Below are positions 9,639-60,150 of a stretch of 64,000 nt of DNA, piece after piece. Where the stretch lies: assembly GCA_963665665.1 (NCBI GenBank), contig OY762428.1:5248001-5312000 (forward strand). The letters are read 5' to 3'. The position numbers and the translations under genes are program-made. The stretch is from Candidatus Kapaibacterium sp. GTDB lineage: Bacteria; Bacteroidota; Ignavibacteria; Kapaibacteriales; UBA2268. Below the pieces are notes generated by a model. The model ran no database searches. It saw only the letters and a program-made list of their open reading frames with translations, and was not told where the DNA came from. Numbering within the stretch: the stretch's first letter is position 1; the number at the start of each line of letters is the position of its first letter.

Positions 9639-9777
9639 CTATCCGGATCATATTCCTGTCAAATTTTTACTTATTTCCTATCCGTCCTCATAATTGACTG
9701 ATATTATTGATATTAATACCTTTTATACATCCTTCTGAAACGATTTTTTACAGCCCAAATCCCTTTTTCTGAGCTTT

Positions 9778-9966
9778 CCGAGCGTTCCCCCGTGCCTTCC
9801 GAGCGTTCCCTCGTGCCTGCCGAGCATTCCCTCGTGCCTGCCGAGCGTTCCCCCGATCTTTCCGAGCATTCCCCCGACCCTGCCGAGCATTCCCTCGTGA
9901 TTTCCGAGCGTTCCCTCGTGCTTTCCGAGCATTCCCTCGTGCCTGCCGAGCGTTCCCCCATGCCTT
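9778..9966. repeat. Tandem array of nine 21-bp units (consensus CCGAGC(G/A)TTCCC(T/C)CGTGC(C/T)T(G/T))
   Basis: Units start at 9778, 9799, 9820, 9841, 9862, 9883, 9904, 9925 and 9946. GC-rich island in AT-rich intergenic DNA. Confidence 0.95.
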
Positions 9967-10416
9967 CCGAGACACTTTTTCAGGTAAAATTCTACTCAGA
10001 AAAGACAGAGTTTCAATTTTTTGATATAGAATTTCGTTCTATTGGTCAGTTCGTTCCCCTTGATCAATTGATGTTTTAATAGGAAAGTAGCGGAATTTGC
10101 TATGGCGATGAAAATATTCAGTTGAAAAACATTGAAGTTTGCTATGCCCGGCAAACTTAATGATCATTTTGCACAGAATTTCAATCGGATGAGGGTAGAG
10201 ATAACTAAGTTACAATATGTATCAGGTTTCGGAGAGTATAATCTTGCAATACAAGCTTTAATCCCCGATATTTGATACCGCCCCCTTTTCGTATTACCCC
10301 TGACAAAGCAATAAAAATAAAGATGAAGCCGCCTGATAAGCTGACCTTGTGTCACTTTGATTGCAACGAAGAGTCCATATCCTGGAAATTATACCTTAGA
10401 TAGTTGTCCCGACAGT

Positions 10417-46491: not shown

Positions 46492-46512
46492 GAGGACTTC
46501 TGTTGATTTCCA

Positions 46513-48432
46513 CTCCGTCCCGTGCCCGGCTTGGGATGGAGAAACCTGTCCCCGATCCATCGGGACAGGTCGATGGTGGTTTCTTAAAAATTCCCCTCGT
46601 TGAGGGGTGGCGTGCGCAGCGAGTCGGGGTGGATTCTTTTTCTTAGTCCCAAGGTATTATTATCCACGAACTAAAGCACGTGGCTATTGAATTTGACGAT
46701 TATAAAGCTGGAAGGTCATTCTGAGCGCCAGCGAAGAATCCATTCTTTATGCACTATCTGCAAACGAAAATGGATTCTTCAGTCGCAAGAGCATCGGAAT
46801 TATATAAAAAGCTCCGTAGGAGCGGAATTTTTGTAGATAATTTTTACATTGCGATTATTAAAAGCTCCGTAGGAGCGACACAATCTTTTGCCAATGTCGC
46901 CCCTACGGGGCTGTTGTCCTTTCCGGATTCGCCTTTCTACAAAAATGTCGCGGCTACGCCGCTGTCGATTTTTCTCTCTCATTACGAAGTTGTACTTCGT
47001 AATGCAGTTTTCCTGAAACTGAGCTTCATAATTCCAAAGTAGAACTTTGCAAGAAATATTCCTTCCCAAGTACAACTTGGGAAGGAGGGAAATAACAACA
47101 TAATACCTCCTTCTCCGGCCATTATACCCCGTTCTTCCATCCCAATGAACAGGCCGCCGGCCTTAATTCCCCATCCTGTGGTTTCAATGAACCGGATAAT
47201 TTCCTTATTTCAATGCTGTTTCGAACCAGAATCCAAATGTTTGGGCTAATTGCTTTGTTGGCAGGGCTTTAAACTGCCTTGGCCGGAGGTATTGAACTAC
47301 TGTTTGGCCTTAATGTAGTGAAATTTGGCCTCATTGAACACTTGGTTGACCTTATTGAACACTTGGTTGATCTTACTGAACACTTGGTTGGCTTTACTGA
47401 ACACTTGGTTGACCTTATTGAACACTTGGTTGGCTTTACTGAACACTTGGTTGACCTTACTGAACACTTGGTTGATCTTACTGAACACTTGGTTGATCTT
47501 ACTGAACACTTGGTTGGCTTTACTGAACACTTGGTTGACCTTACTGAACACTTGGTTGACCTTACTGAACACTTGGTTGACCTTACTGAACATGTTCTTT
47601 GCCTCCGACCAAGAGTTCAATGCCTCCGACCAAGGCGTCAATGCCTTCAACCAAGGCGTCAATAACTCCGACCAAGGCATCATTATCTTCAACCAAGGCA
47701 TCATTATCTTCAACCAAGGCATCATTATCTTCAACCAAGGCATCATTATCTTCAACCAAGGCATCATTATCTTCAACCAAGGCATCATTATCTTCAACCA
47801 AGGCATCATTATCTTCAACCAAGGCATCATTATCTTCAACCAAGGCGTCAATATCATCAAACATCGGTGCAATAGCTTCAACCAAGAGTTCATTATCTTC
47901 AACCAAGGCGGCAATAAAGCAAAACATTGCTGCAATAGGTGCAAACAAGAGTTCATTATCTTCAAACATCGGGGCATTGCTTCTGACCCCTCCCAAACCC
48001 TCCCCGAAGGAGAGGGCTTTGAAGAAGAACAAGGCGGCAATGACTTAGAACATCGGTGCATTACCATAGACTCTTCCTACCTCCCCCCGGCCCCCTCCTT
48101 CGAAAGGAGGGGGAGTTAATTCTATGTTATTTAACTTCTTATCCCCTCCTAATGTAGGAGGGGAATACAGGGGTGGTTTCTTAAAAATTCCCCTCGTTGA
48201 GGGGTGGCGAGCGCAGCGAGACGGGGTGGTTTCTTTTTCCATAGCTTCTGGTCAGGGCGTCATTATCCACGAGATAGAGCACCTGGCTATCGAATTTGAC
48301 GATTATAAGGCTGGAAGGTCATTCTGAGCGCCAGCGAAGAATCCATTCTTCACACACTATCTGCAAACAAAGATGGATTCTTCACTTTGTTCAGAATGAC
48401 CTACAGGAATGTCCCCAGCTGGCGGGGGACAG
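46513..48432. repeat. Composite non-coding repeat locus A: REP-like palindrome mosaic around a 21-bp-unit foldback
   Basis: Direct repeat 46575-46780 ~ 48172-48383; GCTCCGTAGGAGC units (46811, 46864); CATTACGAAGTTGTACTTCGTAATG (46980); CCTTCCCAAGTACAACTTGGGAAGG (47061); CCCCTCC...GGAGGGG hairpins. Confidence 0.9.
47111..48075. repeat. Foldback A: two inverted arms of about 23 x 21-bp units around GAACATGTTC (47588-47597)
   Basis: Left arm has 12 near-identical TTGGTTGACCTTACTGAACAC units. Right arm includes 8 identical GCATCATTATCTTCAACCAAG units (47677-47844). The arms are complementary in register. Confidence 0.9.
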
Positions 48433-48475
48433 TTCTTTTCATAGATTTATTAAAATTCAGGGAGGAATTAAATAT

Positions 48476-48811
48476 TTAATAATCATCGATGATATCGGGT
48501 TCCCAGAGATGTTTATCCAGGTCAACAGCTTCGGCTTTGAATGTTATTCCTTCGGACAGCAGTAATTCTTTCATCCTGAAAGGTGTGCCAAAGTGTATCT
48601 TGCCGCTTAGTTCACCAAGACGATTAACAACCCGGTGGGCGGGTATATCGCTGTCATCGCCAATTCCGTTCAGTGCCCAGCCAACCATCCTGGCTCCTGA
48701 TGCAAGCCCGGCAGCCCTGGCTACCCTGCCGTATGTACACACTTTGCCGGCTGGTATCTGCCGGACAACTGCATATACTTTTTGGAAAAAATCTTTATTC
48801 TTTTCAGCCAT
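48476..48811 (-). CDS. Alkyltransferase-like (ATL/MGMT family) protein
   Basis: IPAGKVCTYG, ARMVGWAL, PAHRVV (no catalytic Cys). Confidence 0.92.
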   Translation of the reverse strand: MAEKNKDFFQKVYAVVRQIPAGKVCTYGRVARAAGLASGARMVGWALNGIGDDSDIPAHRVVNRLGELSGKIHFGTPFRMKELLLSEGITFKAEAVDLDKHLWEPDIIDDY

Positions 48812-57674: not shown

Positions 57675-58379
57675 ATGAAAAGATTATTATTAGTGAGCAA
57701 TTCAACGCTACATGGCAGCGGATATCTTGACCATTGTGCAGAAGAAATCAAGTCATTTCTTGGCAATACAATAAAAAAAGTACTATTTGTTCCTTTTGCC
57801 AGGCCTGGTGGCATCAGCCATGACGTATACACATCCAAGGCCTCGGAAAGATATGCTGAATTGGGATATGAGCTTATAGGATTACATACCTTTGATGATC
57901 CGAAGAAAGCAGTAGAAGAAGCTGAAGCTATGTTTATTGGCGGAGGTAACACTTTTGTTTTGCTTGGAGGGCTTCAGGAAGCGGGAATTATTGAGCTTAT
58001 CAGGGAAAAAATCGAGAACGGAATGCCGTATATCGGAACAAGTGCAGGTTCTAACGTTGCCTGCCCGACTATAATGACTACTAACGATATGCCCGTTAAA
58101 CAATTGAATAATTTTAATGCAATTAATGTATTTCCCTATCAGATAAATGCACACTACCTGGATCCGGACCCGAACTCAACCCATAAAGGTGAAACAAGAG
58201 AAACAAGGCTTAAAGAATACATGGTATTCAACGAAACGCCAATAATAGGACTGCGCGAGGGATGTATGGTTCACGTGGAAGGAGAAAAAATGCTGTTGAA
58301 AGGCAGCACAGGTGCCAGGATATTCAAACGTGGGCATGACCCCATGGAAATCAGCCCGGTTTGCGAGATAAAGATCTAA
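57675..58379 (+). CDS. pepE: Dipeptidase E (S51)
   Basis: LLLVSNS, FVPFA, IGGGNTF, GTSAG, TTNDMP, INAHY, GETRETR. Confidence 0.95.
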   Translation: MKRLLLVSNSTLHGSGYLDHCAEEIKSFLGNTIKKVLFVPFARPGGISHDVYTSKASERYAELGYELIGLHTFDDPKKAVEEAEAMFIGGGNTFVLLGGLQEAGIIELIREKIENGMPYIGTSAGSNVACPTIMTTNDMPVKQLNNFNAINVFPYQINAHYLDPDPNSTHKGETRETRLKEYMVFNETPIIGLREGCMVHVEGEKMLLKGSTGARIFKRGHDPMEISPVCEIKI

Positions 58380-58465
58380 TATTTATTAAAAAATAAAGAT
58401 TGAAATGGCGGAACAGGTTCGTGAGAAGCCGGACGAGTACTGTTAAATTCCATTCTGATTTCTCT

Positions 58466-60150
58466 CCTTCCCAGGTTGTACCTGGGAAGGATTATTCCCA
58501 CAAAGTTTTACTTTGAAATAGAGAAGCATAACTTCAAATGAAAATTGCATTACGAAGTACAAGTTCGTAATGAGGGGGCATCGTAGGGGCAACCCTTGTG
58601 GTTGCCCGAAAAAGAATCCATCTTTGTTCGCCAGATAATGTGTGAAGAATGGATTCTTCGCTGGCGCTCAGAATGACCTTCCAGCCTTATAATCGTCAAA
58701 TTCAATAGCCACGTGCTTTAGCGCGTGGATAATGACGCCCTGGTCGGAAGCAAAGAAAGAAAACCTCCCCTGTATTCCCCTCCTCCCCGAGGAGGGGATA
58801 AGAAATTAAATATCATAGAATTAACTCCCCCTTCTTCCGAAGGATGTGGCCGGGGGGAGGTAGGAAGGGTCGAAAGCAAAGCACCGATGTTTGATTCTAT
58901 TGTTTCCTTGTTCGGAGTTATTGATGCCTTGTTCGGAGTCATTGCCGCCTTGTTTGAAGATAATGAACTCTTGTTTGAAGCTATTGCAGCAATGTTTGGC
59001 TTCATTGCTGCCTTGTTCCAAATCGATGCACCGATGTTTGATGATAATGAACTCTTGTTTGAAGCTATTGCAGCGATGTTTGATGATAATGAACTCTTGG
59101 TCGACACTATTGCAGCGATGTTTGATGATATTGCTGCCTTGTTTGAAGGCATTGAACTCTTGTTCGGAGGCAAAGAACATGTTCAATAATGTCAAACAAG
59201 CGTGGGATGAAGTCAAACAAGCGTGGGATGAAGTCAAACAAGCGTGGGATAAAGTCAAACAAGCGTGGGATGAGGCCAAACAAGCGTGGAATAAAGTCAA
59301 ACAAGCGTGGGATAAAGTCAAACAAGCGTGGGATAAAGTCAAACAAGCGTGGGATAAAGTCAAACAAGCGTGGAATAAAGTCAAACAAGCGTGGGATAAA
59401 GTCAAACAAGCGTGGGATAAAGTCAAACAAGCGTGGAATGAGGCCAAATTTCACTACATTAAGGCCAAACAGTAGTTCAATACCACCGGCCAAGGCAGTT
59501 TAAAGCTCTGCCAACAAAGCATTTAGCCCAAACATCAGGATTCTGGTTCAAAACAGCATTGAAGTTAGGAAATTATCCGATTCATTGAAACCACAGGATA
59601 GGGAATTAAGGCCGACGTCCTGTTCATTGGGGTGGAAGAACGGGTAAACAGAGCAAAAGCATGAGGCGATTATGTTGTCATTCTGACGGAGCGAAGCGAC
59701 AGAAGAATCCATCTTCTTTAGTAGCTGATGCATAAAGAATGGATCCTTCGCTTCGCTCAGGATGACACCCGCCAACTATAATAACTTCAATCGGAAAAAG
59801 AATCCACCCCGTCTCGCTGTGCTCGCCACCCCTCAACGAGGGGAATTTTCCGGAAATCCACCCCCGGCCTTTCCCGACACGTCGGCGCCAGCGGTGGACA
59901 TTCCCATCCGTCATTCTGACGGAGCGAAGCGACGGAAGAATCCATCTTCGTTTGCAGATAGTGTGTGAAGAATCCACCCCGTCTCGCTGCGCTCGCCACC
60001 CCTCAACGAGGGGAATTTTTCAGGAAGTCCCCCCCTGTATTCCCCTCCTCCCCGAGGAGGGGATAAGAAATTAAATATCATAAGATTAACTCCCCCTCCT
60101 TCCGAAGGCGGGGGCTCACTTCAAAGGCTTCCCCTTTGGGAGGGGTCGGA
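58466..60150. repeat. Composite non-coding repeat locus B: inverted, reshuffled homolog of locus A
   Basis: Reverse complements of locus A modules; GTAGGGGCAACCCTTGTGGTTGCCC (58583); direct repeat 58767-58843 ~ 60032-60108; GTCATTCTGACGGAGCGAAGCGAC units (59677, 59910). Confidence 0.9.
58860..59661. repeat. Foldback B: 21-bp-unit arms (about 15 and 23 units) around GAACATGTTC (59175-59184)
   Basis: Right arm has 12 near-identical GTCAAACAAGCGTGGGATAAA units; left arm has (T/A)TGTTTGA... units in complementary register. Confidence 0.9.

Follow-up and report, generated by a model that had tools for sequence, protein, structure and literature searches.

A lineage-specific intergenic repeat cassette built of two mirror-image 21-bp minisatellite arrays in a Kapaibacterium genome

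The window analysed here (the whole stretch of DNA, 64,000 nucleotides) carries two copies, A and B, of a repeat cassette (Table 1). The two lie in opposite orientation with about 10.7 kb between them. In copy A, two 21-bp tandem arrays detected by TRF (47335-47592, 12.3 copies with 91% matches, and 47629-47909, 13.4 copies with 88% matches) meet at a short palindromic axis; the arrays of copy B span 58898-59148 and 59186-59436. On one strand, the stop codon of an ORF of acidic heptads (ORF1) overlaps the ATG of an ORF of basic heptads (ORF2). A first-pass annotation, in which the locus was read as a giant foldback with compensatory evolution of its arms, overlooked that 21 bp corresponds to a heptad and that two overlapping ORFs lie on one strand. 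Its description of a 21-bp-periodic imperfect inverted repeat around the axis is correct, and so is its figure of 14 identical bases out of 21 between the arm units, which holds for the consensus units of the two arms; at the best of 21 phases, such identity has a chance probability of about 0.005. In register, the mirror complementarity of the arms is 0.65 in copy A and 0.58 in copy B; out of register it drops to about 0.25. A seed-9 search detected no arm-to-arm inverted pair, the arms not being a high-identity inverted repeat.

Table 1. Features of cassette copies A and B (window coordinates)
Feature	Position	Strand	Remarks
Cassette A core (leader, ORF1 arm, axis, ORF2 arm, tail)	47088..48181	-	shared with other loci; in blastn against two other loci, homology stops at 47087/47091 and 48179/48182
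Axis, palindrome GAACATGTTC, junction type I	47588..47597	.	contains minus-strand ORF2 ATG (47593-47591)
ORF1, 128 aa, putative start = first Met	47583..47969	-	acidic/hydrophobic heptads, ALVEDND x8 plus variants; C-terminal end GGKEHVQ, then stop
ORF2 (P0006), 98 aa	47297..47593	-	basic heptads VNQVFSK x12, then tail NEAKFHYIKAKQ and stop
ORF1-arm 21-bp array	47600..47965	.	TRF; 19 in-register units
ORF2-arm 21-bp array	47290..47592	.	TRF; 12 units
Conserved tail	47088..47296	-	first ~105 nt degenerate heptads, remainder non-coding
Inward frame "ORF3", antisense of ORF2	47237..47665	+	ATG 47237, in-frame TAA 47270-47272; after the TAA, LTEHLVD heptads continue across the axis
Terminator-like hairpin, 12-bp stem then T-rich run	47060..47086	-	directly beyond tail
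Small G+C-rich hairpin module ("KALSFGEGLGGV" in ORF1 frame)	47975..48030	-	inside distal ORF1 arm; present in many cassette loci
Leader: two G+C-rich hairpins flanking an A+T-rich spacer	48060..48181	-	
~85-nt palindromic module (GTCATTCTGA...TCAGAATGAC), cassette-flanking	48330..48412	.	recurs at 58600-58680 and 59680-59765 (by eye); stretch holding it has ~86-106 repeats in the genome (blastn coverage)
Copy B ORF1, 100 aa	58887..59189	+	LLFEAIA/AMFDDNE heptads; end GGKEHVQ, then stop
Copy B ORF2 (P0005), 98 aa	59179..59475	+	VKQAWDK heptads; same tail as copy A ORF2
Copy B conserved tail	59476..59690	+	
Copy B axis	59175-59184		

Copy A is one member of a lineage-specific family of dispersed intergenic repeat cassettes with at least 38 copies. 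The genome, a single closed contig of 5.46 Mb, holds 38-39 such loci of about 1.1 kb each: 39 loci have at least three ORF2-type heptads, and one of them (C1:625294), for which no ORF1 piece was found, was left out later. All 39 keep the order ORF1 arm, junction, ORF2 arm, tail; the axis offset is identical in 37 of the 38, and the junction is of type I in 25. The core of the cassette consists of two abutting, oppositely oriented 21-bp minisatellite arrays, which arose as an inverted duplication of a single heptad-coding repeat. A hairpin-rich leader flanks them on one side and a conserved tail on the other, within a mosaic of small palindromic modules. Homology between loci runs out about 1.2 kb on each side of the axis, and the module junctions of cassettes and flanks, recurring ...CCACCCC junctions among them, show the mosaic arrangement. 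Every part of the intergenic stretch 46.55-48.42 kb is repeated 35-240 times in the genome, and one cassette copy has been duplicated along with 380 nt of an adjacent peptidase gene. In 36 aligned loci, conservation of the tail is 90% or more along a stretch of about 200-260 nt. It shows no conserved RNA fold (the alifold consensus reaches only -12 kcal/mol over 204 nt, with one or two double-sided changes), no consistent ORF and no 3-periodicity. Among the 41 genomes searched, strong matches to the cassette occur in its own genome only.

The cassettes are all intergenic, in gaps of 1.5-5.4 kb. Convergent gene-like ORFs flank 18 of the 38, compared with 469 of 2890 genome-wide (p 7e-6). In 27 of the 38, the gene upstream points the same way as the cassette (p 0.014). 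Terminator-like hairpins in the cassette flanks number 18 against 2.2 expected. No terminal inverted repeats (judged by eye), target duplications or transposase were found for the cassette; the ends of its core are reproducible but lie within the mosaic of modules. Among the three options offered by the first-pass annotation, a bacterial foldback-type element comes nearest in that there is a dispersed multicopy family with conserved flanks, but the near-perfect terminal arms of such elements are absent.

We favour, at about even confidence, the explanation that the cassette is a lineage-specific mosaic repeat in which the foldback is a by-product and ORF1 and ORF2 possibly encode small coiled-coil proteins. 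The foldback would have resulted from inverted duplication and array-wide homogenisation, with occasional short-patch copying between the arms, and not from selection for base pairs. The cassettes would persist mainly at gene 3' ends, and the expected source of their transcription is read-through out of the upstream gene of the same direction. ORF1, on the read-through strand, appears to bear traces of translation-level selection, while ORF2 would combine good start signals with no coding signature. The long hairpin in the read-through RNA would be incidental, and it might end or stabilise transcripts. Judged from the sequence signals described below, ORF1 may well be translated, the chances being about balanced; that ORF2 is also translated is possible and more doubtful.

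Are the cassettes genes? According to one alternative, which we regard as rather unlikely, each is a functional two-gene cassette, in which the acidic ORF1 and the basic ORF2 would be small coiled-coil proteins that are coupled in translation and perhaps act as partners. ORF2 would have been overprinted on the antisense of an inverted ORF1 repeat copy, and the 38 copies would be a fast-evolving paralogous family. Several observations are consistent with this possibility. First, the overlap of stop and start recurs with ORF2 in the +1 frame relative to ORF1 at all four junction types. The junction ATG of ORF2 is present in 34 of 38 loci, the four without it being type III, and a GGAGG starts 13 nt upstream of this ATG in 25/25 type I loci (0/9 type II loci); such spacing is typical for the genome, which uses Shine-Dalgarno sites. 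Second, hydrophobic residues are kept at the a and d positions (F/W/L/V and V/A/I) in all ORF2 flavours. Third, replacements in the sense frame of ORF2 are milder than those in its antisense (0.02 vs -0.75), and each antisense heptad gains a proline in the 8 KQAWD loci, where the antisense frame also loses its codon score. Fourth, the codon usage of ORF1 is gene-like in 32/38 loci (score +0.39 in copy A, the 95th percentile of true-frame windows, and +0.18 in copy B), and synonymous changes are in excess in the ORF1 frame only (70/210 vs 0.24 expected, p 0.0015).

However, the codon usage of ORF2 is unlike that of genes at every locus (score -0.18 in copy A; gene-like in 0/38), with rare codons such as GTC and CAA, the latter in 78/79 Gln codons vs 31% in the genome, and AAT never used; nor is there a synonymous excess in the ORF2 frame. 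Stops are not avoided either: they occur within the arrays in the ORF1 frame of 10/38 loci and in the ORF2 frame of 4/38, neither frame being freer of stops than unused frames, and some cassette copies have premature or lost stops. Also against the two-gene reading, a bias to convergent intergenic regions is what selfish repeats typically show, the heptad numbers of ORF1 and ORF2 are uncorrelated, and no Pfam or NCBIfam family scores above its cut-off. Replacements in ORF1 are radical (mean BLOSUM62 -1.0). A structure prediction for an ORF1-ORF2 complex scored 0.01; run without controls, it is uninformative either way. Open frames as such were rejected as a sign of coding: the unit sequence by itself leaves four or five of six frames open in each arm.

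A more specific version, which seems unlikely to us, is that the cassettes are working gene pairs with coupled mirror arrays, multiplied 38-fold and evolving through turnover of their repeats, the basic ORF2 having originated by overprinting on the antisense strand of an inverted ORF1 array. The coiled-coil proteins would then be a natural pair coupled as sense and antisense. A change from Val (GTT) to Phe (TTT) in one protein would appear in its partner as the antisense change from Asn (AAC) to Lys (AAA), because the arrays keep their mirror-image codon alignment and swap short patches.

Two other arrangements of genes were considered. In the first, which we hold to be improbable, acidic heptad genes converge: ORF1 and the opposite-strand ORF3 would both be read toward the axis, and the tail would be the promoter and leader of ORF3. 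This would fit the gene-like codon score of the ORF3 frame, antisense to the ORF2 arm, in 30/38 loci. It would also fit the distal ATG of ORF3, which is followed by a hydrophobic stretch (MFGLIALLAGL) and begins a complete ORF in 7 loci, and a variant cassette at C1:3528.9-3530.7 kb with ORF1-type leaders at both outer ends. Yet ORF3 is interrupted by an in-frame TAA at codon 12 in 31/38 loci (TAT in the other 7/38), has no stop near the axis and runs about 25 codons into junk, and it yields FIPRLFD heptads of poor codon score in the 8 KQAWD loci; in the variant cassette family, the best codon score falls on the opposite frame and strand. That TAA (47270-47272 in copy A) is the conserved stop which had been taken as evidence against protein constraint. 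The argument fails because the codon sits in another frame and on another strand, the plus-strand frame toward the axis, than the ORFs with start signals. The second arrangement, a divergent pair of ORFs beginning MF and leaving the axis, was rejected: type II and type III junctions lack such a start on the other strand, and stops interrupt its frame in 5-21 of 38 loci, the count varying with the way the arms are delimited.

The original reading of the first-pass annotation was that a long hairpin of RNA or single-stranded DNA is kept by selection for pairing, with compensatory changes between the arms; we now consider it very improbable. A long hairpin is indeed predicted in silico. Folded as minus-strand RNA, 47297-47969 reaches -237.5 kcal/mol vs -169 for shuffles (z -12.1), the plus strand gives z -9.4 and single-stranded DNA z -11.5. 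The fold of copy B is much weaker (z -4.8). Mirror complementarity in register is a general property of the family (mean 0.57, range 0.39-0.66 in 38/38 loci; 0.26 out of register), and in all 7 repeat subfamilies the unit consensuses of the two arms have 13-16 of 21 bases in common, codon-aligned (LVE/LVD). This pairing is carried by positions without any variation, and it is not position-specific: shifting an arm by multiples of 21 nt leaves the complementarity equal, and the true register is the best one in only 4/38 loci. Likewise, within repeat subfamilies an arm pairs no better with its cognate than with other arms (permutation p 0.28), cognate arms being better only between subfamilies.

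The proposed compensatory change rested on one position of the unit. At this position, copy A has G in 74% of its ORF1-arm units and C in 12/12 ORF2-arm units, while copy B has G in 13% and C in 0/12, so that the base difference between the copies is real. Cross-arm covariation in additional copies, which had been proposed as the test, was found at this one strongly covarying position only: the arm-to-arm association is nominally significant (Fisher p 0.011), but the Watson-Crick pair, G:C or T:A, is kept in only 27/38 loci and broken in 11/38, and the association is gone within subfamilies. The switch tracks the repeat subfamilies. Type I and type III axis palindromes do differ by mirrored changes, as expected if pairing were selected; against this, one ORF2 arm contains Q-to-H units (CAT/CAC) that are not mirrored by any change in its ORF1 arm. 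Strand-specific tolerance of wobble pairs, which would point to RNA, is absent (45 G.U-type cells on the ORF strand vs 41 on the other, of 798). Arm lengths are not matched: over the 38 loci, the number of units in one arm does not correlate with that in the other (r 0.08), so that the change noted at unit 13 of both arms is a coincidence of array ends. Rfam gave 0 matches at gathering score across the whole window and, in 46500-48600, weak hairpin-like matches only (17-24 bits vs thresholds of 70-139). With the register, subfamily, wobble and Rfam tests all negative, a structured RNA with compensatory evolution is not borne out.

The core of the unit does not vary in either arm, and this includes its synonymous sites (TTG, CAA). 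This is compatible with the hairpin, and it could mean a constraint at the nucleotide level for which our favoured explanation does not account. It also agrees with the idea that the arrays are a DNA scaffold for a protein, similar to iterons or centromeres, with the invariant 9-bp core CTTGGTTGA placed every two helical turns and facing opposite ways on the two arms. Both the 21-bp spacing and the constant geometry of the axis in 38 loci would suit such a scaffold. Nevertheless, the heptad reading accounts for the period equally well, neither a candidate binding protein nor a conserved neighbour turned up (ordinary, unrelated genes adjoin the cassettes), and 38 chromosomal loci with 6-27 sites per arm at gene 3' ends correspond to no known system; we judge this possibility highly improbable. 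Finally, tandem and inverted repeats are prone to misassembly, but an assembly artefact can practically be dismissed given 38 loci of common geometry with differing unit content and unique flanks in one closed contig, and a separate public assembly (ENA) whose protein is 87/93 identical to one locus.

Comparison with known repeats may help to place the cassette. REP and BIME elements are mosaic clusters of G+C-rich hairpins, with REP units of 20-40 bp, found after genes and between convergent genes. The cassette flanks are likewise a mosaic of small G+C-rich hairpins enriched between convergent genes; in contrast, nothing in REP elements corresponds to the 0.6-0.9 kb pair of 21-bp arrays. Drosophila foldback transposons (FB, Galileo, Tetris) have terminal, nearly perfectly complementary arms, and these are part of elements with transposases. 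Like these, the cassette has long inverted arms of tandem repeats whose number varies by arm and copy. However, its arms meet in the middle, are 57-65% complementary with fixed differences, and come with no detected transposase or target duplication. Coiled-coil proteins, including designed pairs of acidic and basic coils, have a seven-residue period with hydrophobic a and d positions. The acidic ORF1, whose repeats have almost no Lys or Arg, and the basic ORF2, its putative partner, share this heptad period, but unlike known heptad coiled-coil families they are without homology, their Pfam and NCBIfam matches all falling below cut-off. The tandem repeats of Borgs, which are archaeal extrachromosomal elements, include repeat regions in proteins, with coding units that are multiples of three. 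The cassette arrays resemble them as abundant, fast-evolving perfect tandem repeats, but the Borg repeats are not known to have mirror-image pairing or to form a dispersed cassette with conserved flanks.

A further parallel is with BrickBuilt, a minisatellite-bearing MITE of Porphyromonas gingivalis described as present in 19 copies that are always intergenic (PMC4596501). The two have in common that they are species-restricted, multicopy and intergenic, with a core of spacerless head-to-tail repeats between a conserved leader and tail (PMC4596501). The BrickBuilt unit is 23 nt, not a multiple of 3, in a single array (PMC4596501), whereas the cassette has a 21-nt heptad unit, two mirror-image arrays and ORFs with start signals running through them; small inverted-repeat ends were not found in the cassette. 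The present family adds to the short list of minisatellite-bearing bacterial repeats to which BrickBuilt belongs.

Even as selfish DNA and nothing more, the cassettes would be unusual among bacteria. In the closed genome, about 1% of the sequence is in 21-bp minisatellites (162 TRF loci with periods of 21, 42, 63 or 84 sum to 56 kb, or 1.03%), and the largest family consists of mirror-image pairs with a fixed axis. Four reading frames remain open through such arrays, which calls for caution in annotation. If ORF1 and ORF2 were both made, the family would clearly exemplify the birth of a gene antisense to a repeat, the sequences of the two proteins being inherently coupled. Either way, the loci are by nature prone to vary in length and to undergo inversion between copies of opposite orientation.

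The remark in the first-pass annotation that the element belongs to no described family agrees with the Rfam result and with the Pfam and NCBIfam searches, in which six candidate translations gave generic coiled-coil matches only; no published description of such an element was found in the literature searched. None of ten candidate ORFs is on record by exact look-up, the 256-aa frame spanning both arms has no protein match, and the ESM Atlas gave no usable match for ORF1 or ORF2. ORF2 searched against a set of 5.8 billion proteins, and by phmmer over 1.84 billion representatives, gave 1104 matches at E<=0.001, of which the ten inspected (nine short ones and P0007) are all unrelated tandem-repeat translations. 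Related loci were not confirmed in genome contigs with ORF2 or the neighbouring 995-aa ORF as queries, nor in metagenome contigs with P0158. Pattern scans of genome and metagenome collections gave no match above chance: the tail 33-mer had 0 matches in metagenomes, and the junction 20-mer gave 2, as many as chance would produce (about 1 expected). The core repeated three times at 21-bp spacing occurs at 9 loci, in unrelated taxa and in arrays of other units. Mirror symmetry in the arrays of relatives (0.40-0.62) was set aside, as their axes lie inside single arrays, which is another architecture. The only relatives found are two ORF1-frame proteins (P0157 and P0158, source ENA) from a close strain. 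The close strain has a normal heptad at a site where the ORF1 frame of the source genome has a TAA.

Two arrays of 21-bp units abut at the palindrome GAACATGTTC (window 47588-47597) and together span 47290-47965; a second copy, B, lies in the opposite orientation at 58898-59436. Read toward the axis where the arms meet, the units of the two arms are identical at 14 of 21 bases, a match expected at the best phase in about 5 per 1000 unrelated units. In register, the mirror complementarity of copy A reaches 0.65 and that of copy B 0.58; out of register it is about 0.25. As a single strand, the minus strand of 47297-47969 folds at -237.5 kcal/mol (shuffles -169, z -12.1), the plus strand at -220.9 kcal/mol (z -9.4) and the ssDNA with z -11.5; the fold of copy B is weaker (z only -4.8). 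Given the shared units, the in-register complementarity and the fold z-scores, the foldback described in the first-pass annotation is therefore real. No pair between the arms turned up when exact inverted seeds of 9 bases were sought, so the structure is a quasi-palindrome rather than a clean inverted repeat. On the best-supported reading, the region is a mosaic intergenic repeat specific to this lineage, and its largest module pairs two heptad-derived minisatellites in mirror image.

The source genome is closed (5.46 Mb, G+C 38.6%), and the window corresponds to C1:5248001-5312000. TRF detects 162 loci with a period of 21, 42, 63 or 84, which add up to 56 kb (1.03% of the genome). Three or more ORF2-type heptads are present at 39 loci, all ordered as arm 1 (the ORF1 arm), junction, arm 2 (the ORF2 arm) and tail. 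One of them, C1:625294, in which our script detected no ORF1 piece, was left out of later counts, hence n=38. The axis offset is the same in 37 of these 38 loci, and in-register complementarity averages 0.57 (range 0.39-0.66). Four junction forms occur: GAACATGTTC in 25 loci, GAGTAACCTC in 7, GAGCAACCTC in 2 and the palindrome GATTATAATC in 4. The tail 3' of arm 2 is conserved at 90% or more over about 200-260 nt (36 aligned loci). About 1.2 kb away from the axis the homology between loci fades into unique DNA; in comparisons with two further loci, the limits of cassette A fall at window 47087/47091 and 48179/48182. Every part of the intergenic stretch from 46.55 to 48.42 kb recurs in the genome, with 35-240 copies. 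The stretch is rich in hairpins of high G+C (18 terminator-like sites vs 2.2 expected), and the order in which small modules join varies. Both 46550-47090 and 48180-48420 are crowded with short hairpins that are G+C-rich and lead into T runs, and modules often join at ...CCACCCC. A palindromic module of about 85 nt (GTCATTCTGA...TCAGAATGAC), with about 90-110 genome copies, often bounds cassettes. Window 58000-59871 is part of a segmental duplication with G000:C1:5035510-5037465 (98% identity over 1449 nt), which covers cassette B and the 3'-terminal ~380 nt of the S51 peptidase gene next to it.

Coordinates of the reading frames and of the short palindromic module in the window
Feature	Position	Strand	Remarks
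ORF1, copy A	47583-47969	-	arm 1; ...ALVEDND..., C-terminal end GGKEHVQ*
ORF2, copy A	47297-47593	-	arm 2; MFSKVNQVFSK...NEAKFHYIKAKQ*
ORF3, inward-reading frame	ATG 47237, TAA 47270-47272	+	strand opposite ORF1/ORF2
~85-nt palindromic module	48330-48412, 58600-58680, 59680-59765, 59910-59970		

Twenty-one bases are seven codons, and in copy B the heptads read LLFEAIA/AMFDDNE in ORF1 and VKQAWDK in ORF2. Reverse-complemented and kept in the codon-aligned frame, the ORF2 unit translates as LTEHLVD, which has a pattern in common with VIDALVE of ORF1: hydrophobic, x, acidic, x, L, V, acidic. The core common to both arms, TTGGTTGA, thus encodes Leu-Val-Asp/Glu in one of them and (Val)-Asn-Gln in its counterpart. 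Heptads in the register of the arms continue, in degenerate form, through the first ~105 nt of the tail. Judged from their units, the arms are an inverted duplication of one heptad-coding unit. A variant cassette (G000:C1:3528891-3530750) combines an ORF1-like arm with an arm of AEQAINK heptads, of which the genome holds 27 arrays; some 400 nt separate the two arms, and each outer end has an ORF1-type leader. Since the antisense of the AEQAINK arm carries an ORF1-type hairpin leader, the layout of this variant is more symmetrical and convergent. A second, unrelated 21-bp family has NARKARG / TNAKTAR heptads (window 9748-9975, minus strand; 27 and 10 arrays genome-wide); where bipartite, its arrays are direct repeats, not inverted.

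The foldback could alternatively be a structured RNA or DNA kept by selection on pairing. Pairing was scored per position on the consensus units of each locus. Paired positions are mostly invariant and some positions are never paired; the invariance of most paired positions holds no information for or against pair selection. The position reported earlier as a compensatory change does vary on both arms (G:C in 14 loci, T:A in 13, G/A in 4, T/C in 7) and is Watson-Crick in 27/38 loci (Fisher p 0.011), and the unit fractions of this G/T switch correlate between the two arms (r 0.63). Overall, complementarity is 0.586 for cognate vs 0.570 for non-cognate arms (p<1e-4), but permuting loci inside each ORF2 flavour removes this advantage (p 0.28): the arm-to-arm association, the switch included, tracks repeat subfamilies. 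Shifting one arm by 1-4 whole units leaves complementarity unchanged, and the true register is best in only 4/38 loci. Over the 38 loci the unit numbers of the two arms are uncorrelated (r 0.08), and wobble-type cells have no strand bias (45 vs 41 of 798). Rfam has no family match for the window. In one locus, arm 2 contains Gln-to-His units (CAT/CAC) that lack a mirrored counterpart in arm 1. The unit-shift, within-flavour permutation, wobble, arm-number, Gln-to-His and Rfam results all counter pair selection, which is thus unsupported for RNA or DNA. We conclude that the foldback derives from common descent of the arms together with homogenisation within arrays. The few mirrored changes (the G/T switch, the type I vs type III axis variants) would be explained more simply by short-patch copying or template switching between nearly identical cores.

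Several data bear on translation, some for and some against coding. At all junction types ORF2 occupies the +1 frame relative to ORF1, and the ORF1 stop falls within a few codons of the ORF2 start. Of the 38 loci, 34 provide ORF2 with an ATG (25 of type I and 9 of type II) and 4 do not; among loci with the ATG, the canonical stop is reached in 21/25 type I and 6/9 type II. GGAGG starts 13 nt upstream of this ATG in all 25 type I loci, the spacing found in the genome's own genes. Genome-wide, starts are preceded at 9-11 nt by an excess of GGAG-type ribosome-binding sites, and Shine-Dalgarno use is moderate. ORF2 variants retain F/W/L/V and V/A/I at a/d positions, and their replacements score as milder when read in the sense frame (0.02) than in the antisense frame (-0.75). 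The codon score was calibrated on held-out long ORFs (true-frame mean 0.23, 5th-95th percentile 0.09-0.39). It is at least 0.09 for the ORF1 frame in 32/38 loci; against coding, the ORF2 frame is gene-like in 0/38 and its antisense frame in 30/38. The rare codons of the ORF2 frame are CAA, GTC, GTG and AGT, never AAT. In the variant family the strand preference of the score is reversed, so this test is unable to settle the strand. Synonymous excess among single-step unit pairs is confined to the ORF1 frame (70/210 vs 0.24 expected, p 0.0015). Also against coding, ORF1 replacements are radical, the core is invariant even at synonymous sites, and in TRF-delimited arrays the ORF frames contain stops no less often than unused frames do. 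On the side of coding, two unnamed ENA-assembly proteins are on record in the ORF1 frame. One, P0158 from a close strain, matches the ORF1 frame of G000:C1:4942101-4942379 at 87/93 residues, with one Val/Phe difference at the 'key' position and one whole heptad where the source genome has TAA, the latter a point against coding. In our reading, ORF1 is probably translated, now or recently, and ORF2 possibly so. The stop previously described as conserved, which ends ORF3, is present in 31/38 loci but is TAT in 7.

Placement was tested against a crude set of genes, the 2891 ORFs that have a gene-like codon score and are 150 aa or longer. Cassettes lie between convergent genes in 18/38 cases vs 469/2890 gaps genome-wide (p 7e-6), and in 27/38 the cassette has the same direction as its upstream gene (p 0.014). 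The window neighbours are ordinary and mutually unrelated (hybrid histidine kinases, Na/H exchanger, MntP, nitrilase, CrcB, peptidases). This is the pattern of tolerated intergenic repeats.

Among 41 genomes searched, strong ORF2 matches are confined to the own genome; weak matches occur in seven relatives, mostly with internal stops. The 16 loci examined in those relatives are other 21-bp arrays of unrelated units, and their mirror symmetry, where high, falls inside single arrays. Such relatives of the same family and order (loci L014-L031 in genomes G009, G010, G016, G018, G024, G029, G033) hold 21-bp tandem arrays with very different units, a sample biased toward this period by the heptad protein used as query. 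No copy turned up when 185,579 species genomes and the metagenome collection were scanned for patterns, a scan that may leave very near records uncovered. Bacterial 21-bp arrays in mirror image are not described in the literature searched; the closest published system found is BrickBuilt, a minisatellite MITE of Porphyromonas gingivalis (PMC4596501). At least 150 ORFs of the source genome carry type IX secretion C-terminal tails. Finally, the cassettes at 47088-48181 and ~58740-59700 are oppositely oriented, with about 10.7 kb of ordinary genes between them (histidine kinases, Na/H exchanger, MntP, nitrilase, CrcB, S51 peptidase), and recombination between them would invert this segment.
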